Shown one piece after another: positions 1 to 12,397 of a stretch of 12,397 nt of DNA. The DNA lies in the IMG/VR virus record IMGVR_UViG_2619619132_000012. One strand, written 5' to 3'. The translations under genes and the position numbers were made by a program. Each line of letters starts with the position of its first letter. The stretch's first letter is position 1. Source of the DNA: a virus. Its lineage: Duplodnaviria > Heunggongvirae > Uroviricota > Caudoviricetes. The notes under the pieces were generated by a model. The model did no database searches. It was not told the origin of the DNA and saw only the letters and a list, made by a program, of their open reading frames with translations.

Positions 1-1293
<1,293 letters not shown>

Positions 1294-1409
1294 TACCCAA
1301 TTTTTCTGAATCTAAAAAGCGCCTGCGGGCGCTTTAAGTAGAGGTTTAATCATTTGAAAATAAATGGATTTTATTTTTAAGTGTCCATATAACGTCCATC
1401 TTTGAATGC

Positions 1410-1450
1410 AAAAAGCCCACAGCTTCTATGCTGTGGGCTTTGTTTTTTGG
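1410..1450. terminator. rho-independent terminator downstream of serS, probably bidirectional
   Basis: Stem gcccacagc (1415-1423), loop ttctat, stem gctgtgggc (1430-1438), then tttgttttttgg; A-run upstream makes it usable from either strand. Confidence 0.6.
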
Positions 1451-1472
1451 TGTCCTCATGAGTGAGGGAACC

Positions 1473-1506
1473 AAAAAGAAAACCCGCAGTTTTTACGCTG
1501 CGGGCT
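1473..1506 (-). terminator. rho-independent terminator for the minus-strand hok transcript
   Basis: On the minus strand: stem cccgcag, loop cgtaaaaa, stem ctgcggg, followed by ttttctttttgg; lies about 95 nt downstream of the hok stop. Confidence 0.5.
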
Positions 1507-1598
1507 TGTTGTTCACGTCAACTGGAAATAGGGTGCCTTTTCGACCTTTACCCTGGCAACCGATTGACGGGGAAGTTGCCTTCCCCGTCGCGGTTTCC

Positions 1599-1739
1599 TT
1601 ACTGCTTACACTGTAAGAACGCCGCAAACTCCGCTCCCCAGAAACTCATCCGTATTTCACACAGCGAACCGTGCAGCATCCAGATGATGAGGATTGCCGT
1701 CACGCAGAATGTGATGGCCGTAAGCGATTTTTGCGACAT
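1599..1739 (-). CDS. Hok-family type I toxin (small membrane peptide), 46 aa
   Basis: Hand-translated, absent from the ORF track (too short): MSQKSLTAITFCVTAILIIWMLHGSLCEIRMSFWGAEFAAFLQCKQ. Hydrophobic N-terminal helix plus the SLCEIR motif and AAF block as remembered for plasmid R1 Hok (…[22 protein letters not shown]…). AGGAG sits 8 nt upstream of the ATG. Confidence 0.75.
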   Translation of the reverse strand: MSQKSLTAITFCVTAILIIWMLHGSLCEIRMSFWGAEFAAFLQCKQ

Positions 1740-1842
1740 AGCGCTTGCTCCTTTTTCGGGGAGGCGCTAACCTATCACTTGCTGAGGGTAGATGGTTAGG
1801 GCCTCGGGTTAACGTTAAAGTTGACTCGGGGCCTTTCCACAT
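1657..1842 (-). CDS. mok-like overlapping reading frame (translational coupler for hok)
   Basis: 61-aa ORF starting 103 nt upstream of hok in a different frame and ending inside hok, the arrangement known for mok/hok. No sequence homology asserted. Confidence 0.4.
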   Translation of the reverse strand: MWKGPESTLTLTRGPNHLPSASDRLAPPRKRSKRYVAKIAYGHHILRDGNPHHLDAARFAV

Positions 1843-1930
1843 CTGGCCTTCGGGTATTCCCTCCGACCATCAGCCGAAAGGCACCCGCGCGTAATCTATC
1901 GCTTTTTTGTTACTCCGGCAATTCTGCCTG

Positions 1931-2191
1931 TTAATTCTGAGGTAAAGGCAAACTCATCTGATTGTTTCCCCTGTGTGAAGCTGGCAGCTCATGCCACGGG
2001 ATACCTTCTGAAGAGTGAACGCCGGAGGCGTGTTTTGATGTGAATTTATGGAAAGCTTCCAGTGTTGAGAAGCATACGCCGCATTCCAGATTGTTACACT
2101 GGTAATACTTTTGCCGCACGGTGTTTGAATCATTTTCCGGACGACTGGTGCGGATACGGGCAGATGCGCCACAAAGCGGACAACGGAACAT
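1931..2191 (-). CDS. ogr: Ogr/Delta-family zinc-finger late transcription activator
   Basis: 86-aa ORF MFRCPLCGASARIRTSR…YQCNNLECGVCF…; the CxxC…CxxxxC motif and N-terminus resemble P2 Ogr as remembered. GGGAGG SD 6 nt upstream. Sits immediately downstream of D as in P2. Confidence 0.8.
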   Translation of the reverse strand: MFRCPLCGASARIRTSRPENDSNTVRQKYYQCNNLECGVCFSTLEAFHKFTSKHASGVHSSEGIPWHELPASHRGNNQMSLPLPQN

Positions 2192-2231
2192 AGCGACCTC
2201 CCTTAACGTGGTGCTGCCTATTCTAAGTTGC

Positions 2232-3341
2232 TCACTCTGTTTCCGCTATCCATTCCGGGATTTTTGCCTCAAGCTCAAGCTGCGTGGTAAAACCGCTGTT
2301 ATCAATGGTGTGCTCGGCTTTTGCAATGATCCAGTCCTGATTATCAATCTCGCTTTTAAATCCTGTTACCGTGCCATGCATTTCGGGGTAGAGTTCTGCA
2401 CGTCCACGCGCCAGCGTGATGGAGAATGATGCGGCTCCGCGTTGTAGTTGCTGCCACTTTGCCGCCGCTGCGCGTCTTGCTGCCTGCTCGTTCTGATAAG
2501 TCTTGCGTAACACAAACACATTGCCTTCCGCGCCTTCCATATAATCACCTTCACGGCTGCTGCTTTTCTCCTTTTTGGGTTTTGGCGGTTTACGGCGTTT
2601 CACGCTGACTTTTTTCTTTTTCCCGTAATTAAGATCAAGCCAGTAAGCGCGTACCCCCGTATACGCTTCGCGGTCAGCAATGCGGAACTGATGGCGATCG
2701 CCGCTGCTGCGTGTGATGGCAAACGATGGCAACGGCTGGCCCTGTGCGTTCACGCCACCGCCGGGCATGATGAATAACAGATTACCGCTTTTTACCGTGG
2801 TGATTGCGCCCAGCATTTCCGCCATGCGCGTAAGGAAGGACATATCGCTTTCTTCGGTCTGGTCGGCGTGGTCGATTTCGATATCCATCAGCATTTCGCT
2901 GATTTGCGGTTTCAGACCGTACCGATGAGCGATGGCGGATACCACGCGCTCAACGGTCACATCATGCCAGGACACCTCACGTTTAACGTTAAATTCATCC
3001 CGAAAATCTGCGCTTCTGGCTGAAACCGTCAGCCTGTCCGGCGGTCCTTCGTGAGCGATTTCATCAACAATGTAAGTGCCTTTTTCTGTCAGCGGTTCGC
3101 CTTTCCAGCCAATGAGAACCGTCAGACGCGCGCCCCGTGGCGGTAGCTGCAACTGACCATCCGCATCATCCAGCGTGATGGTGAGCTGGTCCGCTTCAAA
3201 TCCCCGGTTGTCGGTCAGTGACAGACTCATCAGGCGCTCTGCCACGCCGGACAGCGTTTCCCCCTCCGCGAGAATATCAAAATCCGGCATTTTCACGGGG
3301 TCTGTGCTCTGACTGAGCAATTGCATGGTGGTGTTGGTCAT
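2232..3341 (-). CDS. D: P2 gpD-like tail protein (late control gene D)
   Basis: ORF track 2232..3362; start moved to the ATG at 3339-3341 (MTNTTMQLL…), preceded by GGGAGGGAAAG. Translation resembles P2 gpD throughout (LSLTDNRGFEADQL, SARSADFR, lysine-rich KKKKVSVKRRKPPKPKK linker, SGFK…QDWLIAK C-terminal block). Confidence 0.9.
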   Translation of the reverse strand: MTNTTMQLLSQSTDPVKMPDFDILAEGETLSGVAERLMSLSLTDNRGFEADQLTITLDDADGQLQLPPRGARLTVLIGWKGEPLTEKGTYIVDEIAHEGPPDRLTVSARSADFRDEFNVKREVSWHDVTVERVVSAIAHRYGLKPQISEMLMDIEIDHADQTEESDMSFLTRMAEMLGAITTVKSGNLLFIMPGGGVNAQGQPLPSFAITRSSGDRHQFRIADREAYTGVRAYWLDLNYGKKKKVSVKRRKPPKPKKEKSSSREGDYMEGAEGNVFVLRKTYQNEQAARRAAAAKWQQLQRGAASFSITLARGRAELYPEMHGTVTGFKSEIDNQDWIIAKAEHTIDNSGFTTQLELEAKIPEWIAETE

Positions 3342-3497
3342 CTTTCCCTCCCTGTGCGGCATGGTCGCATGTGCGTGCGGAGTGGGTTACTGCTTTTTGT
3401 TGTCGCCGTGGCGGGAGAACGGCGCAGGGGTGAGATTACGCGCGTGGTGGGTGATGATTGTTGCCGAATCATTTAACGGATACAAGGGGCTGAAGCT

Positions 3498-4682
3498 ATG
3501 AGTGAAACTCGTTTTCATGGTGCCCGTGTTACGGAAAGTACCGACCTGGTAACAGCGATTAATGATGTTGATTCCAGCGTTATCGGTATCGTGGCAACGG
3601 CGGATGATGCGGACGCGAAGCTGTTCCCGCTGAACAAGCCCACACTGCTGACCCGCGTCAATGACGTGCTGGGAAAATGCGGGACAACGGGGACGCTTTA
3701 TCGTGCGCTTAAGGCCATCGCAGACCAGGTGAGCACAAAGGTGATCGTCGTTCGCGTGGCTGAACACAAAGAAGAAAACGGAAAGACGCAGGATCAACTG
3801 GTTATCGGTGGTTCTGAATCTGACGGCAGCTATACGGGGATGTATGCGCTGCTTGTTGCAGAGCAGGATGAAAGCATCGGATACCGTCCGCGTATTCTGG
3901 CCGCGCCGGAGCTGGACACGGAGGCGGTGACAAAATCCCTGTGCGTGATTGCGGGTAAACTGCGCGCGTTTGTGTATGCCACATGTCATGGTTGTAACAC
4001 GATGGCTGAGGCGATTACCTACCGCCAGAAATTCAACGAACGTGAGGTGATGCTCTTATGGCCTGACTTCATCGCCTACAACCCGAAAAGTGGCAAAAAC
4101 GAAACGTTCCCCGCGCCTGCTTATGCGTGCGGCCTTCGTGCGTACATTGACCATGAGCAGGGCTGGCACAAATCGCTGTCCAACGTTCCGGTTAAAAATG
4201 TGCTGGGGATGTCGAGGCATGTGTTCTGGTCGTTACAGGCCGAAGACAGTGATGCCAACAGCCTCAACAACAAAGAAATCACGACCATTATTCGTCGTAA
4301 CGGGTTCCGCTTCTGGGGCAACCGCACACCGGAAACGAACGCCTACATCTTTGAGGTGTATACCCGAACCGCACAGGTGCTGGCTGATTCAATTGCGGAA
4401 GCGCAGTTTGAAACCATCGACAGTCCACTGACACCTGCGAACGTGAAGGATGTTATCAGCGCCATCAGAGCAAAACTGGATTCGCTGGTTACTGTCGGGA
4501 AACTGATTGGTGCGGAGTGCTGGTATGACGTGGTGGATAACAGCACCACGGGTTTACGTCAGGGGCGTGTGCGTATTCGCTACAAATATACGCCCGTTCC
4601 TCCGCTGGAAGACATGGAGCTTTACCAGTCGTTTACTGATGAATTCTTTGGTCCCGCATTTGCGGTGCTGGGAGGTGCCTGA
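3498..4682 (+). CDS. FI: contractile tail sheath protein (P2 FI-like)
   Basis: 394-aa ORF; translation shares blocks remembered from P2 FI (FPLNKP, LRAFVYA, YRQ.F..RE, WPDF, GWHKSLSNV, IRRNGFRFWGNRT, YTRTAQV, YTPVPPLE). Confidence 0.93.
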   Translation: MSETRFHGARVTESTDLVTAINDVDSSVIGIVATADDADAKLFPLNKPTLLTRVNDVLGKCGTTGTLYRALKAIADQVSTKVIVVRVAEHKEENGKTQDQLVIGGSESDGSYTGMYALLVAEQDESIGYRPRILAAPELDTEAVTKSLCVIAGKLRAFVYATCHGCNTMAEAITYRQKFNEREVMLLWPDFIAYNPKSGKNETFPAPAYACGLRAYIDHEQGWHKSLSNVPVKNVLGMSRHVFWSLQAEDSDANSLNNKEITTIIRRNGFRFWGNRTPETNAYIFEVYTRTAQVLADSIAEAQFETIDSPLTPANVKDVISAIRAKLDSLVTVGKLIGAECWYDVVDNSTTGLRQGRVRIRYKYTPVPPLEDMELYQSFTDEFFGPAFAVLGGA

Positions 4683-5194
4683 TGGCTGTACCAAAACATC
4701 TTCGCTTTTTTACGCTGTTTGTGGATGGTGAAAACGAAGTGGGTAAGGTGACGTCCGTCACTCTGCCTAAGCTGACGCGCAAAACCGACAGCTACCGGGG
4801 TGGTGGCATGATGGGTGCGGTAAGTATTGATCTCGGTCTGGACGACTCCGCGCTTGATGCGAGCTTTGTCATGGGGGGCGCAGTTCGTGAGCTGTTCCTT
4901 AAGTATGGCGGCACGATTGACGGCACGCTGCTGCGTTTTGCGGGTGAATACTACACCGATGCAGAAAGCGACCTGTATGAAGTCGAAATGCGCGGACGTG
5001 TGACGGAAATTGATATGGGGGAAGCCAAACAGGGCGAAGCCACATCACACACTTACGCCATTAAAAACACCTACTACAAGCTGAGTGTTAACGATCGCCC
5101 GTTGTGGGAGATTGACCTGCTGAACTTCATTTACCGGAAGGACGGCAAGGACATTGTGCCCGATCGCATCCGTTCCGCGCTCGGGCTTGGCTGA
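4682..5194 (+). CDS. FII: tail tube protein (P2 FII-like)
   Basis: 170-aa ORF; start overlaps the FI stop (TGATG) with a GGAGG SD; contains the VTSVTLPKLTRKTDSYRGGGM block typical of FII. Confidence 0.9.
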   Translation: MAVPKHLRFFTLFVDGENEVGKVTSVTLPKLTRKTDSYRGGGMMGAVSIDLGLDDSALDASFVMGGAVRELFLKYGGTIDGTLLRFAGEYYTDAESDLYEVEMRGRVTEIDMGEAKQGEATSHTYAIKNTYYKLSVNDRPLWEIDLLNFIYRKDGKDIVPDRIRSALGLG

Positions 5195-5248
5195 TAAGTA
5201 ATATGCAGGCGGCGCAGTGCGTCGCCTCTGACTGAAAGGAGTTTCCTG

Positions 5249-5614
5249 ATGAAAGAGACGAAAAACATCGATACCGAAAACACGGTAGTTACTGACACTG
5301 TGAAAGAAACCAGTGAGCGTGGCGTAAAACTTACCCAACCAATTGAGCGAGGCGGCGAAAAAATCACGTATGTGGAGATCACCGGGGCTATTGAGCAGGC
5401 TGGATCTCTGCGAGATTTGTCGCTGTCTGATGTGCTGAATCTGAAAGCGGAATCCATGTTTACGCTGCTGTCACGCGTGACATCACCGCGACTGGATGAA
5501 GTGACGATCAAAAAAATGGCATCCCGTGACTTTATTCAGTTATGTGCGGTTGCCGTAAATTTTTTGAGCGGTGCGGACTCTGGCGGGAAGAACGAACAGG
5601 CGACGGAAGCCTGA
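5249..5614 (+). CDS. E: tail assembly chaperone (P2 gpE-like), zero-frame product
   Basis: 121-aa ORF between tube and tape-measure genes, AAGGAG SD; positional equivalent of P2 E / lambda G. Confidence 0.75.
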   Translation: MKETKNIDTENTVVTDTVKETSERGVKLTQPIERGGEKITYVEITGAIEQAGSLRDLSLSDVLNLKAESMFTLLSRVTSPRLDEVTIKKMASRDFIQLCAVAVNFLSGADSGGKNEQATEA

Positions 5615-5778
5615 TCACGGTTGTGTGCTTTGAGCACATAGAAGACTTTGTGGCAGATATTGCCGCCATTTTTAACTGGTCGCCCGCCGAAATCTTCATG
5701 ATGACGCCCGGCGAAGTGGTTAGCTGGCGCGAGCGGGCGGCACTTCGCAGCGGGAATGCAGACAATGAAGACTCTTGA
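5249..5778 (+). CDS. gpE+E' fusion chaperone made by programmed -1 ribosomal frameshift
   Basis: The -1 frame relative to E is open from 5542 to 5778 and overlaps the start of T. Slippery heptamer T_TTT_TTG at 5560-5566 lies in frame X_XXY_YYZ relative to E. Confidence 0.6.
5560..5566 (+). other. slippery heptanucleotide TTTTTTG for the E/E' -1 frameshift
   Basis: aaT TTT TTG in the E reading frame; the -1 frame continues FFERCGLW… to the stop at 5776-5778. Confidence 0.6.
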
Positions 5779-8569
5779 TATCCGGGTCGCTTTCAGCGCC
5801 GTTGACAGGCTGACCCGGCCTGCCGAAAACGCCCGCCGCCTGATGGGGCAGTTTGGTGACTCCATCCAGCGAACGCAGGGGGCGATCAAAAATCTCGAGC
5901 GTCAGGCGCGTTCATTTGAGCGCGCCCGCGACGCTGTCAGTAAAGCGGATGCGGGTATCGTGAAAGCACGACGCCAGCTTAACGCCCTTAATCAGTTACA
6001 ACGCACGGGTACAGTGCTCAGCGAAAAACAACAAAAGCTGATGCAGCAGTTAAGCACCCGGCTTGAACGCCTGAATGAATCGCGCACACGGGAAATTCAG
6101 AAAATGCGGGAACTTGGCGGAGAGCTGAAACGCCACGGCATTTCCCTGACAGGCAGCGATAACACAATCCAGCAGGCCATCAGACGCACTGAACAGTACA
6201 ACAACCAGCTTGAACGCGAACGGCAGGCGCTTGCGCGTGTAACGCGGGCGCGTGAGCGGTATTCGCGCGCGCAGGAAACCGCGGGAAAACTGAAAACAGG
6301 TGGTGCGCTGGCAATTGGTGCTGCAGCGGCTGGCGGCTATGCTGCCGGGCGTTTTTTGCAGCCTGCGATCGGGTTCGGCAAAGAGATGTCCCGCGTTCAG
6401 GCACTGACGCGAATCGACAAAAACAGCCCGCAGTTTAAGGCGCTGCGTGAGCAGGCGTTAAAACTTGGTTCTGAAACACAGTTTACTGCGAGTGATGCCG
6501 CCAGTGGGCAGAGCTTTCTGGCAATGGCTGGTTTTACTCCGCAGGCCATTCAGGCCGCATTGCCCGGTGTTCTTAATATGGCGCTGGCAGGTGGCGTCGA
6601 ACTCGGCGAGACGGCGGATATAGGCTCCAATATCCTCACACAGTTCAACCTGACAGCCGATCAAATGGACCGGGTTGGCGATACGCTGACAGCGGCATTC
6701 ACCCGGACCAATACTGATTTACGCGCGCTGGGCGAAACCATGAAGTATACCGGTCCGGTTGCCGCAAAACTTGGTATCAGTCTTGAAGAAGCGGCAGCCA
6801 TGGCCGGGATGCTTGCCAATAATGGTCTTCGTGGAAGCGATGCTGGTACGGCCATGCGCGCAAGTCTGTCCCGCCTTGCATCACCGCCAAAAGCTGCGGC
6901 TGATGCACTGAAAGAGCTGGGGGTGTCAGTTGCTGACGCCAGAGGCAAAATGCGCCCGATGGAGGATGTGCTGCTTGATCTCTATAAGGCGACACAAAAA
7001 TACGGACAGGTGGACCAGGTCTCCTTCTTCAAGGACATCGCCGGAGAAGAGGCGTTCGTTGGTTTACAGACGCTTGTTGCGGCGGCTGGTTCAGGAGAGC
7101 TGCAAAAACTGACCAGAGAATTGCAGGGGGCAAGGGGAGAGGCCGATCGCGTTGCAAAAGTAATGGCCGATAATCTTGATGGGGACCTGAAAAATCTCGA
7201 CAGCGCATGGGAAGGTCTTCGTATTCGCATCAGTGATCTGGTTGACGGTCCGCTGCGTTCTGTCACGCAGTGGCTCACGCGGGTGCTTGAAAAAATCACC
7301 TCGCTGGCGCAGGCCCATCCGGTACTGACGCGCCAGCTACTGATAGCAGGCGGTGCGTTGCTGGCAATGACTGCAACGATTGGCTCGTTGTCGCTGGTTA
7401 TTGGGGTGCTTTACGGAAAGCTGGCCACCCTGCGTCTTGGTTTTGACATTCTTACCCGGTCAATGAATGTCGTCCGGGTGTTGCCTGCGCTGTGGGGAAT
7501 GCTGACGGGTTCTGTTTCTTTGCTGGGAGGCGCTATCGGGGCGCTGTTCAGTCCGGTTGGATTGATTGCTGCTGCGTTTGTGGCTGCGGCGGTTCTCATC
7601 TGGAAATACTGGGAACCCATTAAGGCGTTTTATGCCGGGGTGTTCAACGGGATTATGGAAAGGCTGACCCCGTTGCGCGAAACCTTTGAACGGTTTGGTC
7701 CTGTTTTTGACGCAATCGGGAGCGGGATCAGCCAGGTGTTTAACTGGTTTAAATCGCTGCTGTCACCGATGGAGTCCAGCAAGGAAACGCTGGATAAATG
7801 TACCAGTGCTGGCGAGATATTCGGTAGCGTTCTTGGCGGTGCGTTACAGCTTGTTCTGACACCTGCAAAAATGCTGCTGGATACGCTGGCGTGGATACTT
7901 GAAAAACTTGGCGTCCTTCCGGATGAAGCGGAAAGGGCGCGCAAGAAAATCGAAGACGCACAGCGTGCGGCCATTCTTCAGGACAAGGTTGCCTTGCTTC
8001 AGGGGGACCTGGCGAAAATCAATCCGCCGAAGCCTGTGGAAAATGGCAATGGCACCGGAGGTGATAACCCCAAAGACAATAAACCGCTCACAGACAGCAA
8101 TACCGGTACGCTGCGCAGACTCAGCAAAATTGCTGATAACACAGGTAAGCTGGTTGATGAGACGAAAAAACGCATTGGCCCCGGCGATATTGTCTTTAAG
8201 AACCTGCCCCGCGCACTTGCTGTTCGTGGGGAGTGGCAGGAGCGGAAGATTGCGCAGGTCAGTAAGCCCCCCGCAATTAATATCACACCCGTGGTCCCGG
8301 CTCCGCTGCCTCCGGCGCTGGTCCCTGTTGTTGCGGCCAGCTCCCGCCCGGTGGCGGAGGCCATACGATCTCCAGTGGCATCAGTTCCTGTAACTTCCCG
8401 TAACCGGGAGCCTGTTGCCTCCGGATTTGGTGGTGAAATTCATGTTCATCTGCATAACGTTGTTACGCAGAATCCCCGCGAACTGGCGAAACTGGTCGGT
8501 GAAATGGTCAGGGCAGAAATGGAACGGCGCGCCCGTGCCGGGCGTGGCAGTTTTTACGATAAAGATTGA
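5756..8569 (+). CDS. T: tail tape measure protein (P2 gpT-like)
   Basis: 937-aa ORF; coiled-coil N-terminal part, central hydrophobic/glycine-rich block, position between chaperone and U. The start could instead be the ATG at 5765. Confidence 0.88.
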   Translation: MQTMKTLDIRVAFSAVDRLTRPAENARRLMGQFGDSIQRTQGAIKNLERQARSFERARDAVSKADAGIVKARRQLNALNQLQRTGTVLSEKQQKLMQQLSTRLERLNESRTREIQKMRELGGELKRHGISLTGSDNTIQQAIRRTEQYNNQLERERQALARVTRARERYSRAQETAGKLKTGGALAIGAAAAGGYAAGRFLQPAIGFGKEMSRVQALTRIDKNSPQFKALREQALKLGSETQFTASDAASGQSFLAMAGFTPQAIQAALPGVLNMALAGGVELGETADIGSNILTQFNLTADQMDRVGDTLTAAFTRTNTDLRALGETMKYTGPVAAKLGISLEEAAAMAGMLANNGLRGSDAGTAMRASLSRLASPPKAAADALKELGVSVADARGKMRPMEDVLLDLYKATQKYGQVDQVSFFKDIAGEEAFVGLQTLVAAAGSGELQKLTRELQGARGEADRVAKVMADNLDGDLKNLDSAWEGLRIRISDLVDGPLRSVTQWLTRVLEKITSLAQAHPVLTRQLLIAGGALLAMTATIGSLSLVIGVLYGKLATLRLGFDILTRSMNVVRVLPALWGMLTGSVSLLGGAIGALFSPVGLIAAAFVAAAVLIWKYWEPIKAFYAGVFNGIMERLTPLRETFERFGPVFDAIGSGISQVFNWFKSLLSPMESSKETLDKCTSAGEIFGSVLGGALQLVLTPAKMLLDTLAWILEKLGVLPDEAERARKKIEDAQRAAILQDKVALLQGDLAKINPPKPVENGNGTGGDNPKDNKPLTDSNTGTLRRLSKIADNTGKLVDETKKRIGPGDIVFKNLPRALAVRGEWQERKIAQVSKPPAINITPVVPAPLPPALVPVVAASSRPVAEAIRSPVASVPVTSRNREPVASGFGGEIHVHLHNVVTQNPRELAKLVGEMVRAEMERRARAGRGSFYDKD

Positions 8570-8575
8570 GGAGTC

Positions 8576-9070
8576 ATGGCCATGATGATGATCTACGGCA
8601 TGTTTGTTTTTGAGCTGCGCACGTTGCCGCATCAGCAGTTACAGCAAAACAAAAGCTGGCGGCATGTGAAAAATGAGCGCGTAAACCGCTCAGCAAGCTG
8701 GCAGTATATCGGTGCAGGTGATGATCGCATCGTGCTTTCTGGCGTGCTTTATCCTGAAATTACAGGTGGCGAAGTGTCGCTTTCGTTGCTGACCACGCAG
8801 GCATATACAGGACGCCCCTGGCCTCTGATTGATGGTGTCGGGCAGATTTACGGCATGTATGTACTGACTGAAACGAATACGACCCGTTCCGAGTTTGATC
8901 GCTACGGTAAGGCGAAAAAGATAGAATTTTCACTGACTCTTGAACGCTGTGATGAGGATTTGCGGGAGCGCCTGCAATCCTCATCGTTCAGTGATATGCT
9001 GTCCGGCTTCAAAGATAAGGTCACATCATCCCTCAACAGCGCGGCCAGCTCCGTTAAAGGGCTGTTTTGA
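8576..9070 (+). CDS. U: tail protein gpU-like
   Basis: 164-aa ORF MAMMMIYGMFVFELRTLPHQQL…SWRH…; resembles the P2 gpU family N-terminus; GAGGAG SD upstream. Confidence 0.82.
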   Translation: MAMMMIYGMFVFELRTLPHQQLQQNKSWRHVKNERVNRSASWQYIGAGDDRIVLSGVLYPEITGGEVSLSLLTTQAYTGRPWPLIDGVGQIYGMYVLTETNTTRSEFDRYGKAKKIEFSLTLERCDEDLRERLQSSSFSDMLSGFKDKVTSSLNSAASSVKGLF

Positions 9071-9077
9071 TTAACGC

Positions 9078-9106
9078 AAAACCGCTAATGGTCAGATTAG
9101 CGGTTT
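9078..9106. terminator. bidirectional hairpin between convergent U and invertase
   Basis: aaaaccgctaat-ggtcag-attagcggtttt; the stem overlaps the invertase stop codon (9097-9099), with A/T runs on both sides. Confidence 0.5.
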
Positions 9107-9696
9107 TCATTTTCCTGAGTCTGCCTGGTTGTTTCTTCAGCCTGTATATCGCCTACAGGGTGATAACGATAAATCGTCGATATGCCGATGTCGTAAATGA
9201 TCGCCAGTTGTTTCCTGTCATGACCGTTTTTAATCAGCCTCGCTATTTGCTCGTGTTGTTCTTTTGTCAACTTCGGGCGACGTCCGCCAATGCGTCCTTG
9301 TGCGCGTGCTGCTGCCAGCCCGGCCAGTGTACGTTCTACAATTAATTCACGTTCCATTTCGGCTAAAGCCCCCATGACGTGAAAAAAGAAACGCCCCATG
9401 GGTGTTGACGTGTCAATGCTGTCCGTCAGACTACGGAAATTAACACCTTTTTCCCGCAATTCCTCAATAAGCGTGATCAGGTGTTTCATACTTCTGCCCA
9501 GTCTGTCCAGCTTCCAGACAACCAGCGTATCTCCTTCTGATAGCGTTCTGAGCAGTTTTTTCAATCCCGGTCTGGTTGATTTCGTTCCGCTGATTTTATC
9601 TTCAAAAATCAGTTCACATCCTGCGCAGTTCAGTGCATTGCGTTGTAAATCCGTGTTCTGGTCGTTTGTTGACACACGAATATAGCCAATTTGCAT
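9097..9696 (-). CDS. serine DNA invertase (Hin/Gin/Pin/Cin family), copy 1
   Basis: Start set at MQIGYIRVSTNDQNTDLQRNAL… (AGAGGA SD), not the longer 9825 ORF. Strong resemblance to Pin/Gin as remembered: catalytic-Ser motif GYIRVST, VVWKLDRLGRSMKHLI, SLTDSIDTS.PMGRFFFHVMGALAEMERELI.ERT, C-terminal HTH. Confidence 0.93.
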   Translation of the reverse strand: MQIGYIRVSTNDQNTDLQRNALNCAGCELIFEDKISGTKSTRPGLKKLLRTLSEGDTLVVWKLDRLGRSMKHLITLIEELREKGVNFRSLTDSIDTSTPMGRFFFHVMGALAEMERELIVERTLAGLAAARAQGRIGGRRPKLTKEQHEQIARLIKNGHDRKQLAIIYDIGISTIYRYHPVGDIQAEETTRQTQENENR

Positions 9697-9769
9697 AAAA
9701 AACATCCTCTTTGTTTCGTGAAAAATACAGAGTTGGTATAGGTAGGGATAAAAACGAAAACGTTGGTTT
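9259..9769. repeat. left arm of a perfect inverted repeat (pairs with 11887..12397)
   Basis: Reverse complement matches 11887..12397 at every stretch compared by eye (position sum 21656); first mismatch is 9770 vs 11886. Left limit is set only by the window end on the partner arm. Confidence 0.85.
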
Positions 9770-10280
9770 AGGAGAAGGCTCGGCGCTACCCGTTGGTGTG
9801 CCTGTTCCGTGGCCCACCGCCACACCGCCAGCAGGCTGGTTAAAGTGCGACGGGCGCGCCTTTACAAAAGAACAATATCCTGTTCTGGCCAGAGTCTACT
9901 CGACCCTCCGTCTTCCCGATTTGCGCGGTGAGTTTATCCGTGGATGGGACGACGGGCGCAAAGTTGATACAGGACGTAAGTTGCTGTCCGCACAAGGGGC
10001 AACGCTGTTAAGAACAGCAATGCTGGATTATTATAACCAGGACACTACGGGAACCTCGGGGATAGTCGGCATGGGATTCAACAATGAAGATTCCATTACA
10101 GACCTTCGTGAGGGCAGCTTTAAAATGCCGGACGGGACAACATTCAGCAATCCTGTCATGGCAATGTCAGACAATGGTATGCAGGCTACTATTCTGACCT
10201 CTATCAGAAGCGGGTATGCGAAGGGTATCACTGTCAGACCCCGTAGCATTGCACTTAATTACATTGTGAGGGCAGTTTAA
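9711..10280 (+). CDS. tail-fibre C-terminal cassette A (promoterless segment)
   Basis: Open frame from 9699, no credible start or RBS; conserved junction block GLGEGSALPVGVPVPWPTATPPAGWLKCDG…LPDLRGEFIRGWDDGRK then a variable C-terminus ending NYIVRAV. Confidence 0.8.
   Translation: MFREKYRVGIGRDKNENVGLGEGSALPVGVPVPWPTATPPAGWLKCDGRAFTKEQYPVLARVYSTLRLPDLRGEFIRGWDDGRKVDTGRKLLSAQGATLLRTAMLDYYNQDTTGTSGIVGMGFNNEDSITDLREGSFKMPDGTTFSNPVMAMSDNGMQATILTSIRSGYAKGITVRPRSIALNYIVRAV
9751..9776. other. putative invertase crossover site A (hix/gix-like, 12-2-12)
   Basis: aaaacgaaaacg-TT-ggtttaggagaa; resembles hix (ttcttgaaaacc-AA-ggtttttgataa) in the AAAAC…GGTTT core around a central dinucleotide. Inverted relative to sites B and C. 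Confidence 0.5.
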
Positions 10281-10894
10281 TGAGTAACACTGCAGTTCTG
10301 GATGAAAACGGTATCGCCACTGTAGCGGGCGATATCACTGTATATCACTATGACGAGGAAACCCGGGAATACACCTCATCCTCTGTGGAGTATCTCGCCC
10401 TTGGGGTGGGTACTCCGGCACATTCGTGCGCCGATGCACCGCCGGAGGCAATTTCGGGTTACGTGGTTTGCCGGACTGCCACGCTGAACGGGTGGGAGCA
10501 TGTGCCTGATCACCGCGGCGAGACGGTATACAGCACGGAGAACGGTAACCCTGTTCTGATTACCCAACCGGGTGATTACCCGGCGGACACCACCACAAAA
10601 CAGCCAGCCACGCCATGGGATACCTGGAACGGTGAGGCGTGGGTAACCGATACTGAACGGCAGCGAGCCGCAGAACTGGAGGTTGCCAGACAGCAACGCC
10701 AGCAACGGGTGAAACAGGCGATGGCGTCAGTCGATCTTATCAACCTCAAACTGCGTGCTGGTCGCAGTCTGACACCAGAAGAAACGGCAAAACTGAACGC
10801 CGTGCTGGATTATATCGACGAGCTGAACGCACTGGATATCAGCACGGCACCTGAAATCAGCTGGCCGGAAGCGCCACTGGCACTTGCCAGTTGA
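10280..10894 (+). CDS. tail-fibre assembly chaperone (Tfa / Mu U / P2 G-like)
   Basis: 204-aa ORF; start overlaps the cassette A stop (TAATG); motifs HVPDHRGETVY, WNGEAWVTDTE, DISTAPEISWPEAP match the tail-fibre assembly family. Confidence 0.88.
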   Translation: MSNTAVLDENGIATVAGDITVYHYDEETREYTSSSVEYLALGVGTPAHSCADAPPEAISGYVVCRTATLNGWEHVPDHRGETVYSTENGNPVLITQPGDYPADTTTKQPATPWDTWNGEAWVTDTERQRAAELEVARQQRQQRVKQAMASVDLINLKLRAGRSLTPEETAKLNAVLDYIDELNALDISTAPEISWPEAPLALAS

Positions 10895-10900
10895 ACGGTA

Positions 10901-11384
10901 TCACGCCGCCCTCACGATATAGTTAAACGCGATATTGCGGGGGCGGGTTATGTTAAAGAATGCTCCGTTTAATTCGGCTTTTGCGCGACTGTTTGTTCCA
11001 CCCAGAATTACGTACCACAAATAATCGCTACGGTAATTCCCCGCAAACACCTTATCGCCGCCATAGTCAATATTATTTCCGTTACTCATGTACGAGATAT
11101 CAAGCGAAGAATCGTTATCGTCATGACCGCCGACCAGTGTACCTTTCTGCCATGAAAGCAACTTACGCCCCTCGTCAATCTTGCGCCCGTCGTCCCATCC
11201 ACGGATAAACTCACCGCGCAAATCGGGAAGACGGAGGGTCGGGTAGACTCTGGCCAGAACAGGATATTGTTCTTTGGTGAACGTAGCTCCGTTGCACTGT
11301 AACCAGCCTGCTGGCGGTGTGGCAGTGGGCCACGGAACAGGTACACCAACGGGCAGCGCCGAGCCTTCCCCCAAACCAACGTTT
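10901..11384 (-). CDS. tail-fibre C-terminal cassette B (silent, no start)
   Basis: Frame opens immediately after the cassette C stop codon (TAA at 11385-11387) in the same frame: KNVGLGEGSALPVGV…; same conserved block, different variable tail ending NYIVRAA. Confidence 0.75.
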
Positions 11385-11391
11385 TTATGCG
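11366..11391. other. putative invertase crossover site B
   Basis: ttcccccaaacc-AA-cgtttttatgcg; inner half-site and central dinucleotide match sites A and C, outer half differs. Confidence 0.45.
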
Positions 11392-11945
11392 GCCCTTACG
11401 ATGTAATTAAACGCAACATTGCGGGGGCGCATTGATATCCATGCCCCGGTAAAATTATCCTCCGCTGTCCTTTGAGTACCCATTATGGAGTTATCTGCTG
11501 ATGCAGGAACATAATCGCTATTATTTCCTGCTTTAGGATTAGCTGGGTTTCCAACGGTTATAACAGAATCAGCAGTAGCAAAAGCGATACCTACTTTGAC
11601 ATTAGTATTCAGATCGTAACCGTAATAATCCTGCAAAGCTGTACGAATAAATGTTGCAGCCTGACCACTTAGCAATGAACGCCTCGTATCAACTTTGCGC
11701 CCGTCGTCCCATTCACGGATAAACTCACCGCGTAAATCAGGAAGACGGAGGGTCGGGTAGGCTCTGGCCAGAACAGGATATTGTTCTTTTGTAAAGGCGC
11801 GCCCGTCGCACTTTAACCAGCCTGCTGGCGGTGTGGCGGTGGGCCATGGAACCGGTACACCAACAGGCAATGCAGAGCCTTCCCCCAAACCAACGTTTTC
11901 GTTTTTATCCCTACCTATACCAACTCTGTATTTTTCACGAAACAA
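11385..11945 (-). CDS. tail-fibre C-terminal cassette C (promoterless segment)
   Basis: 186-aa frame with the same N-terminal junction block as A (protein identical through …KEQYPVLAR) and a distinct variable C-terminus ending NYIVRAA. Confidence 0.8.
   Translation of the reverse strand: MFREKYRVGIGRDKNENVGLGEGSALPVGVPVPWPTATPPAGWLKCDGRAFTKEQYPVLARAYPTLRLPDLRGEFIREWDDGRKVDTRRSLLSGQAATFIRTALQDYYGYDLNTNVKVGIAFATADSVITVGNPANPKAGNNSDYVPASADNSIMGTQRTAEDNFTGAWISMRPRNVAFNYIVRAA
11880..11905. other. putative invertase crossover site C
   Basis: ttcccccaaacc-AA-cgttttcgtttt; reverse complement of site A apart from the outer fibre-side half. Confidence 0.5.
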
Positions 11946-12397
11946 AGAGGATGTTTTTTATGCAAATTGGCTATATTCGTGTGTCAACAAACGACCAGAA
12001 CACGGATTTACAACGCAATGCACTGAACTGCGCAGGATGTGAACTGATTTTTGAAGATAAAATCAGCGGAACGAAATCAACCAGACCGGGATTGAAAAAA
12101 CTGCTCAGAACGCTATCAGAAGGAGATACGCTGGTTGTCTGGAAGCTGGACAGACTGGGCAGAAGTATGAAACACCTGATCACGCTTATTGAGGAATTGC
12201 GGGAAAAAGGTGTTAATTTCCGTAGTCTGACGGACAGCATTGACACGTCAACACCCATGGGGCGTTTCTTTTTTCACGTCATGGGGGCTTTAGCCGAAAT
12301 GGAACGTGAATTAATTGTAGAACGTACACTGGCCGGGCTGGCAGCAGCACGCGCACAAGGACGCATTGGCGGACGTCGCCCGAAGTTGACAAAAGAA
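11887..12397. repeat. right arm of the perfect inverted repeat (pairs with 9259..9769)
   Basis: See left arm; identity runs to the last base of the window, so the true extent is unknown. Confidence 0.85.
11960..12397 (+). CDS. serine DNA invertase, copy 2 (5' partial, runs off window)
   Basis: ATG at 11960 with the same SD; the 146 codons present are nucleotide-identical to the reverse complement of copy 1 (MQIGYIRVSTNDQ…RRPKLTKE). Confidence 0.9.
   Translation, partial: MQIGYIRVSTNDQNTDLQRNALNCAGCELIFEDKISGTKSTRPGLKKLLRTLSEGDTLVVWKLDRLGRSMKHLITLIEELREKGVNFRSLTDSIDTSTPMGRFFFHVMGALAEMERELIVERTLAGLAAARAQGRIGGRRPKLTKE

Follow-up and report, generated by a model that had tools for sequence, protein, structure and literature searches.

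Inverted FI-U tail gene block and a predicted shared late activator box in P88-like prophages and their relatives

In phage P2 (Peduovirus P2, NC_001895), a single strand carries, according to the annotated record, the tail genes in the order H G FI FII E T U D ogr, and the genes from FI to D form one operon transcribed from the promoter pF, with U overlapping D, whereas D, ogr and the attachment site (att) occupy the end of the genome. The activator boxes in the late promoters of P2 follow the pattern GTTGT-N12-xxAAC (GTTGT-N12-CCAAC in pF) and precede the transcription start by about 55 bp, and the divergent promoters pP and pO share a single activator site (3057-3087) located midway between them, 55.5 bp from each of the two starts (3016 and 3127). 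Here we analyse a 12,397-nucleotide stretch of DNA (IMG/VR record IMGVR_UViG_2619619132_000012; hereafter, the window) in which orthologs of P2 FI, FII, E/E' (with the TTTTTTG site), T, U, D and ogr are present in a different arrangement (Table 1). The seven tail and late proteins share 32-48% identity with their P2 counterparts (tblastn), and D and ogr precede att as they do in P2, but the block from FI to U is inverted relative to D-ogr. As a sequence-only reading of the window had described, D and ogr lie on the minus strand, divergent from FI across a 156-bp spacer (3342-3497), and U converges, in the place of D, on a gene for a serine DNA invertase (9097-9696, minus strand). Compared with P2, D has its own start with a Shine-Dalgarno sequence, a probable terminator follows U, and no separate box for the pV promoter was found. 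Taken together, the evidence makes it very probable that the window consists of the Escherichia coli serS gene followed by the ogr-proximal end of a P88-like prophage (genus Xuanwuvirus, family Peduoviridae), in which the order of the blocks is an old lineage trait and D and FI would be under the control of a shared activator box.

The closest described phages are P88 (Xuanwuvirus P88, NC_026014), 500465-2, P884B11, Citrobacter phiSM, PhiR44_2 and Chuche, temperate and plaque-forming phages in which the order and strands of these genes are identical to those in the window. Across window positions 1473-9696, the nucleotide identity is 93-95.5% to P88 and 500465-2, with order and orientation alike, and 92-95% to the other four; the alignment with P88 itself (window 1473-9690) is at 93% identity, the remaining approximately 25 kb of the prophage being located beyond the window. 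The criterion of the International Committee on Taxonomy of Viruses (ICTV) for assignment to one genus is approximately 70% nucleotide identity over the full length. The P88 genome reads int ... Q P / O N M L X lysis R S V W J I H G / G' H' / invertase / U T E' E FII FI (reversed) / D (ogr) hok, and the window follows this order at the att-proximal end, namely invertase / U T E FII FI / D ogr hok. What varies within the P88 group is the integration site and the integrase module, the copy in the window being inserted at the serS terminator, and the fibre segment, which consists of two cassettes in P88 but of three cassettes with a single Tfa gene in the window, the cassettes themselves being different. 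The closest complete relative is a 37-kb prophage located between serS and dmsA in genome MS10860, which is 99.6% identical to the window across the shared part. The sequence-only reading took the location of the fibre/Tfa module after U for a sign that this module had moved; the location is as described, but the complete relatives keep fibre and Tfa directly after V-W-J-I-H, and only the FI-U block is flipped, in place.

The arrangement is not peculiar to this group of phages. A 751-bp probe spanning the D/FI junction is contiguous in 1358 of the 5426 complete E. coli genomes, that is, in about a quarter, and a probe for the U/invertase junction is contiguous in 621 complete E. coli genomes. 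We then used the D protein as the query in a scan of one genome per bacterial species and classified the neighbours of each hit by tblastn. Among the 47 D-related loci recovered, 44 have U T E FII FI reversed, followed by D and ogr, with V W J I upstream, and the other three are too short for interpretation. The inverted order extends over more than 20 genera of Enterobacterales, including Salmonella, Citrobacter, Klebsiella, Enterobacter, Kosakonia, Serratia, Erwinia, Pantoea, Pectobacterium, Brenneria, Edwardsiella and Symbiopectobacterium. This enterobacterial prophage was also encountered, at 96-99% protein identity, in a contig of Vagococcus sp. WN89Y (L007), which has the full tail module, and in the Planococcaceae metagenome-assembled genome UBA3378 (L048); the Firmicutes labels of these two records almost certainly reflect contamination or mis-binning.

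Among the named genera of Peduoviridae, four have the inverted order: Xuanwuvirus, Reginaelenavirus (D 73% identical), Reipivirus (69%) and Senquatrovirus (63% in SEN5). By contrast, the order is canonical in Wadgaonvirus 500465-1 (52%), Kapieceevirus (51%), Firavirus (51%) and P2 (48%). The two layouts are cleanly split by the identity of the D protein, with inversion at 62% and above (SEN5, Kp4871-3, Kp4847-1) and the canonical order at 52% and below (500465-1, ST11-OXA48phi15.3, YenM_42.18, P2). The Salmonella phages SEN4 and SEN5 (Senquatrovirus), the Klebsiella phages of Reginaelenavirus and Reipivirus, and the Serratia PP4/KSP20 group accordingly share with the window the inverted FI-U block and the divergent D-ogr, with D proteins 63-73% identical, but are distant from it at the nucleotide level. 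A co-directional FI-FII-E-T-U-D-ogr operon served by a single pF, typical of P2, is absent from the window and is no requirement of the family. The inverted FI-U block is thus an old trait of the whole clade and its normal functional layout. The sequence-only reading had regarded the order as non-canonical, while conceding that its recurrence in many independent related prophages would make it a normal lineage arrangement; it is the latter that isolated phages, the E. coli genomes and the cross-species loci jointly demonstrate. More generally, a departure from the textbook P2 order is no evidence of rearrangement, misassembly or domestication when an entire sub-lineage matches it.

The inversion itself, as deduced from the comparison with P2, stands. 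A foreign origin of the FI-U block was considered and rejected: identity to P2 is 48% for D, 45% for FI and 46% for U, compared with 25-63% in the rest of the prophage, without a jump at either breakpoint, and such uniformity implies that the block was flipped rather than imported. We propose that, in the ancestor of the P88 branch, the segment [pF-FI-FII-E/E'-T-U] was inverted in place long ago, in a single event, with one breakpoint upstream of the pF box and the other one between U and D.

A recent flip of FI-U in this genome, or a recurrent one, brought about either by the Hin-family invertase acting on pseudo-sites or by the large inverted repeat at the right end of the window, appears highly improbable. 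Such a scenario could invoke the fact that the invertase gene adjoins one of the breakpoints, as well as the genome of strain 4/0 (see below), in which invertible fibre segments join large chromosomal inversions between two prophages. However, only about 6 of the 44 inverted loci carry an invertase between Tfa and U, and most of the inverted members of the clade lack one, including SEN5 and a 98-99% identical Salmonella prophage, whereas 500465-1, with its canonical order, encodes an 82%-identical invertase in the same place. We also derived a half-site matrix from the three genuine crossover sites of the fibre segment, one of which is inverted with respect to the other two, and scored the whole window with shuffled sequence as the control. 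The real sites score 22.7-26.1 bits and everything else in the window at most 13. The strongest off-target hits, 13.0 bits inside D (3192-3217) and 11.0 bits at the end of U (9049-9074), are at chance level, given that the maximum reached at least 13 bits in 19% of the shuffles, and in the D/FI spacer, where a gix-like pseudo-site had been suspected, the best score is 1.6 bits. The large repeat, for its part, is confined to the region to the right of U; its arms do not enclose the FI-U block. Hence the invertase flips the fibre cassettes only and has no part in the inversion of FI-U.

In the inverted layout D is out of the reach of pF and needs a promoter of its own, as the sequence-only reading pointed out. 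This promoter must lie in the 156-bp spacer because the region further upstream of D consists of 5.6 kb of antisense tail genes behind the probable terminator. The exact length of the spacer follows from the choice of the D start codon: the longest open reading frame begins at 3362, but the start at 3341 is preferred, in view of a GGAGGG Shine-Dalgarno sequence at 3347-3352 and a CAT column common to 42 relatives. The spacer contains a conserved candidate, a predicted Ogr-type dyad with the sequence GTTGT-N12-AGAAC, of the same form as the annotated activator sites of P2. The 3' ends of two predicted -10 hexamers, GACCAT on the D side and GATGAT on the FI side, are both 48.5 bp from the centre of the dyad, which is positioned exactly midway between them. 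This geometry was calibrated on the P2 record, where taking the dyad centre +/- 55.5 bp as the transcription start reproduces the annotated starts of pP/pO exactly (3016 and 3127) and yields 10307 for pV (annotated 10308) and 17625 for pF (annotated 17626-17628), an error of 0-3 nt. The D/FI spacer is as symmetric as the P2 pP/pO region, although in the present case the promoters are predicted from sequence and the leftward one adds the TGn of an extended -10 element.

The predicted elements are conserved across the clade. In 42 distinct spacers of about 128-199 bp, GTTGT is present in 40, with a variable N12; on the D side, an nAnnnT hexamer is found at 48.5 bp in 38 spacers, and TGn precedes it in 37; on the F side, such a hexamer is found at the same distance in 40 spacers, and in none of them is it preceded by TGn. 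The FI start codon lies 78-88 bp from the dyad in the clade, compared with 83 bp in P2, and the candidate box of the window is conserved at a P2-like late promoter spacing. Across the complete MS10860 prophage, only the D/FI and O/P spacers match the pattern GTT[GC]T-N12-A[CG]AAC (4 strand-wise matches compared with a mean of 0.25 in shuffled sequence). The strict form TGT-N12-ACA has no match in the spacer of this phage but occurs in many of the relatives, and a generic sigma-70 scan of positions 1294-3700 gave no match within the spacer.

These features suggest a scenario in which the inversion would have brought the dyad-symmetric activator box of pF to a position just upstream of D, where a -10 element then arose, giving a second bidirectional late control region that resembles pP/pO. 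One Ogr box (3399-3420) would thus drive two divergent late promoters, pF rightward (start at approximately 3465) and a new promoter, pD, leftward (approximately 3354). Transcription from pD would read on into ogr and so keep the late positive feedback that P2 obtains by read-through from pF, and the hairpin after U (9078-9107) would end the shortened F operon. If this is correct, a late operon has been split by inversion while its activator control was kept.

Several considerations weigh against this interpretation of the locus. The shared-box model is drawn from sequence geometry and from conservation across the clade, and because the 42 spacers share ancestry, the counts measure conservation rather than independent replication. 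The predicted pD start leaves a leader of only about 13 nt, and the extended -10 element could free pD from Ogr. Furthermore, the rest of this particular prophage lies beyond the window, the right end of which is anomalous, so that its completeness is deduced from relatives. The main rival of the shared-box model is that pD is a self-sufficient, Ogr-independent extended -10 promoter, with D and ogr expressed earlier or constitutively and the symmetry around the dyad incidental. Extended -10 promoters can function without a -35 element or an activator, the TGn motif is nearly constant on the D side and never found on the F side, and ogr, located downstream of D, must be produced before the late genes are activated. 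On the other hand, the D-side hexamer keeps its exact 48.5-bp distance over more than 20 genera while the length (128-199 bp) and sequence of the spacer vary, and the leftward promoter pP of P88 has a like layout around the only other dyad of that genome. We therefore consider Ogr-independent expression of D unlikely, albeit deserving of serious attention.

In P88-like phages, S and V are only 11 bp apart (L002, 18494-18504), and no third activator dyad was found in the whole prophage; these phages seem, as far as can be judged from sequence, to do without a separate pV promoter. We lean slightly towards the view that two Ogr boxes acting bidirectionally (P<->O and D<->FI) serve all late genes of the P88/SEN4 branch, the D<->FI box having been made in one step by the inversion. 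Should this two-box reading hold, it would illustrate clearly how an inversion can be tolerated owing to an activator site that acts in either direction. The 3' end of D contains a further sigma-70-like sequence, GTAACA-18-GATAAT (2369-2340, minus strand), which precedes the ogr start by about 150 nt and may represent ogr's own early promoter; in P2, the ogr promoter is in the D-ogr gap, whereas the corresponding gap in the window is only 40 bp.

The inverted layout itself is not new: reference phages deposited from 2014 onwards already show it, and it is very common. Nevertheless, the papers on P88, phiSM, SEN4/5 and Serratia PP4 make no mention of tail gene inversion, orientation or synteny, and a literature phrase search for a description of the inversion returned nothing relevant. 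As far as our literature searches reached, no paper describes a two-box bidirectional control by Ogr. The predicted shared-box pD/pF pair would accordingly be the only, and mildly, new element of the locus.

Table 1. Features of the 12,397-nucleotide window; promoter elements, activator dyad and terminator are predictions
Feature	Position	Strand	Evidence
serS (seryl-tRNA synthetase), host chromosome	1-1293	+	Pfam tRNA-synt_2b, Seryl_tRNA_N; serS annotation in E. coli genomes
Attachment core AAAGCGCCTGCGGGCGCTTT, 20 bp, equal to the serS terminator hairpin	1316-1335		20-mer recurs at the integrase end of the MS10860 prophage
hok/gef-family toxin coding sequence	1599-1739	-	"Hok/Gef family protein" of the NCBI pipeline PGAP at the equivalent MS10860 position
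ogr-type late activator, 86-aa zinc-finger protein	1931-2191	-	Pfam Ogr_Delta 5e-14; 36% identity to P2 Ogr
D (tail/baseplate hub), 369 aa, intact	2232-3341	-	Pfam Phage_GPD; 48% identity to P2 gpD
Divergent control region, proposed bidirectional late promoter pair pD/pF, 156 bp	3342-3497		conserved blocks in 42 distinct relatives
Predicted pD extended -10, TGC + GACCAT (predicted start ~3354)	3361-3369 (GACCAT 3366-3361)	-	
Predicted Ogr-type activator dyad GTTGT-N12-AGAAC	3399-3420, centre 3409.5		same form as P2 annotated activator sites
Predicted pF -10, GATGAT (predicted start ~3465)	3453-3458	+	
FI, tail sheath	3498-4682	+	Pfam sheath domains; 45% identity to P2 FI
FII, tail tube	4682-5194	+	Pfam Phage_tube 7.5e-47
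E / E+E' tail chaperones	5249-5778 (E stop 5614, -1 frame to 5778)	+	tblastn to P2 E; Pfam GpE in the -1 frame
T, tape measure protein	5756-8569	+	Pfam PhageMin_Tail; 33% identity to P2 T
U, tail protein	8576-9070	+	Pfam Phage_P2_GpU; 46% identity to P2 U
Hairpin with 12-bp stem, A-run on one side, T-run on the other; likely terminator	9078-9107		terminator scan; fold -17.6 kcal/mol, z = -2.6
Hin/Gin-family serine DNA invertase, 199 aa	9097-9696	-	PF00239 Resolvase 4.5e-51; PF02796 HTH_7 2e-12 (C-terminal helix-turn-helix); "DNA invertase" in P88
Invertible fibre segment	9711-11945		Pfam Collar, Caudo_TAP
Fibre cassette HcA	9711-10280	+	
Crossover site	9751-9776	+	site searches
Tfa	10280-10894	+	
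Fibre cassette HcB	10901-11374	-	
Crossover site	11366-11391	-	site searches
Fibre cassette HcC	11385-11945	-	
Crossover site	11880-11905	-	site searches
Exact inverted copy of 9259-9769, running off the window	11887-12397	+	100% reverse complement, 511 bases

Everything to the right of the attachment core (1316-1335) is prophage DNA, and upon integration at this position, each end of the prophage regains a copy of the serS terminator. The position of ogr next to the chromosome had raised the suspicion that the locus is a domesticated, tailocin-like remnant, reduced to tail genes, D and ogr. Indeed, there are no capsid, lysis or integrase genes inside the window, the right end of which also lacks the constant part of the fibre gene H, and in strain 4/0, an inversion has detached the corresponding half of the prophage from the remainder. 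We nevertheless find this interpretation very unlikely. We examined at least two closed genomes with the element at serS-dmsA (MS10860 and 4/0), and these closest relatives are complete prophages: that of MS10860 encodes an integrase, repressor/cox, replication proteins, parM/R, portal, terminase, capsid, lysis, baseplate and fibre proteins, whereas 4/0 retains all the genes, split by the inversion. The baseplate, capsid and lysis genes that the sequence-only reading would have sought beyond the window are thus found in the MS10860 relative, with V-W-J-I upstream of the fibre. A fixed locus devoid of attachment repeats, as expected of a tailocin, does not agree with the 20-bp core found at both ends of the MS10860 prophage, nor with the complete, near-identical phage (99.7%) that resides in MS8345 at a different site, btuC-ihfA, with a different integrase. 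The position of ogr beside att is canonical in P2, and all the tail genes of the window are intact and 92-100% identical to those of P88. P88, phiSM and SEN4/5 form plaques (PMC5285337, PMC6456863, PMC5261728), and Serratia PP4 is, like them, a virion-producing temperate phage (PMC9826266).

Beyond U, the window has the hallmarks of a Hin/Gin/Cin-type inversion system, with inverted sites in the fibre gene on either side of alternative C-terminal cassettes and Tfa. The crossover core, AAACG-TT-GGTTT, is embedded in the conserved KNENVGLGEG motif of the fibre cassettes. In this respect, the region resembles the Mu G, P1 C and p15B Min-type systems (Gin/Cin/Hin/Pin/Min), in which a serine invertase is likewise found beside alternative fibre C-terminal cassettes and Tfa and the crossover core, AAACx-NN-GGTTT, lies inside the fibre reading frame; the likeness concerns positions 9097-12397 only and is unrelated to the orientation of FI-U. 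The segment comprises three alternative collar-domain C-terminal cassettes and three crossover sites with one Tfa only. The middle site (11366-11391) begins right after the stop codon of the neighbouring cassette, and in some of the flip states the expressed fibre would have no downstream Tfa on its own strand.

The right end of the window is anomalous. A 775-nt inverted repeat joins 9259-10033 with 11623-12397, but the 95% identity is not spread evenly over its arms: the 40 mismatches are all found beyond the crossover site, and the remainder is the exact copy of 9259-9769, made up of the 5' portion of the invertase gene, the flank upstream of it and a crossover half-site. In comparison with MS8345, the window has the invertase flank joined to cassette Hc1, corresponding to one flip state, whereas the junction of Hc3 with the invertase flank at the end of the window corresponds to the other. 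The constant N-terminal part of H, present in relatives, would be expected next to the outer site but is missing, and site 11880-11905 instead abuts the second copy of the invertase flank. Probably, the right end is a chimeric contig path through a fibre segment undergoing inversion in the culture that was sequenced; less likely alternatives are a genuine second copy and recombination between two prophages. Invertible fibre segments can yield misleading contig ends.

The sequence-only reading had also entertained a chimeric contig, placing it at the D/FI junction. A chimera fits the right end (11887-12397), which lies outside both the D/FI and the U/invertase junctions, and the resemblance of this end to a chimeric path is what could be cited for an assembly artefact at the junctions as well. 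However, closed genomes contain both junctions as continuous sequence, MS8345 with 100% identity to the window, and the two junctions recur in the complete E. coli genomes enumerated above and in the genomes of isolated phages; a chimera at either of them can be dismissed for practical purposes.

In the closed genome of E. coli 4/0 (NZ_CP023849.1, approximately 945-1035 kb; L003/L004), recombination between the fibre segments of the P88-like prophage at serS and of a Mu-like prophage beside aroA has split the former: approximately 45 kb are inverted, from dmsABC to aroA, together with the part of the P88-like prophage from int to H. This is a case in which the fibre-inversion systems of two unrelated prophages were both involved in inverting a piece of the chromosome.

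Between ogr and the attachment site, the hok/mok-like region (approximately 1556-1907) is 85-86% identical to regions of many Stx-converting phages, some of the matching records being annotated "MokW-like host killing". An Rfam scan of the whole window, the hok/sok region included, gave zero matches, with Sok and hok mRNA below the threshold.

Within the tail module, the TTTTTTG sequence at 5561-5567 is, at the sequence level, a slippery site of the programmed -1 frameshift type (T TTT TTG) that would serve the expression of E+E', and the hairpin between U and the invertase gene is likely to act as a two-way terminator. The RefSeq record of P88 has no annotated ogr, but tblastn detects the gene at 99% identity (L001, 34476-34733). 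Similarly, PGAP shortens D to an 801-nt gene of the "VgrG/Pvc8 family" in several E. coli genomes (e.g., L002, 5115-5915), although the 1110-nt frame of D is open in these genomes and its 5' region is identical to that of the window; annotation pipelines thus truncate D in P88-like prophages.

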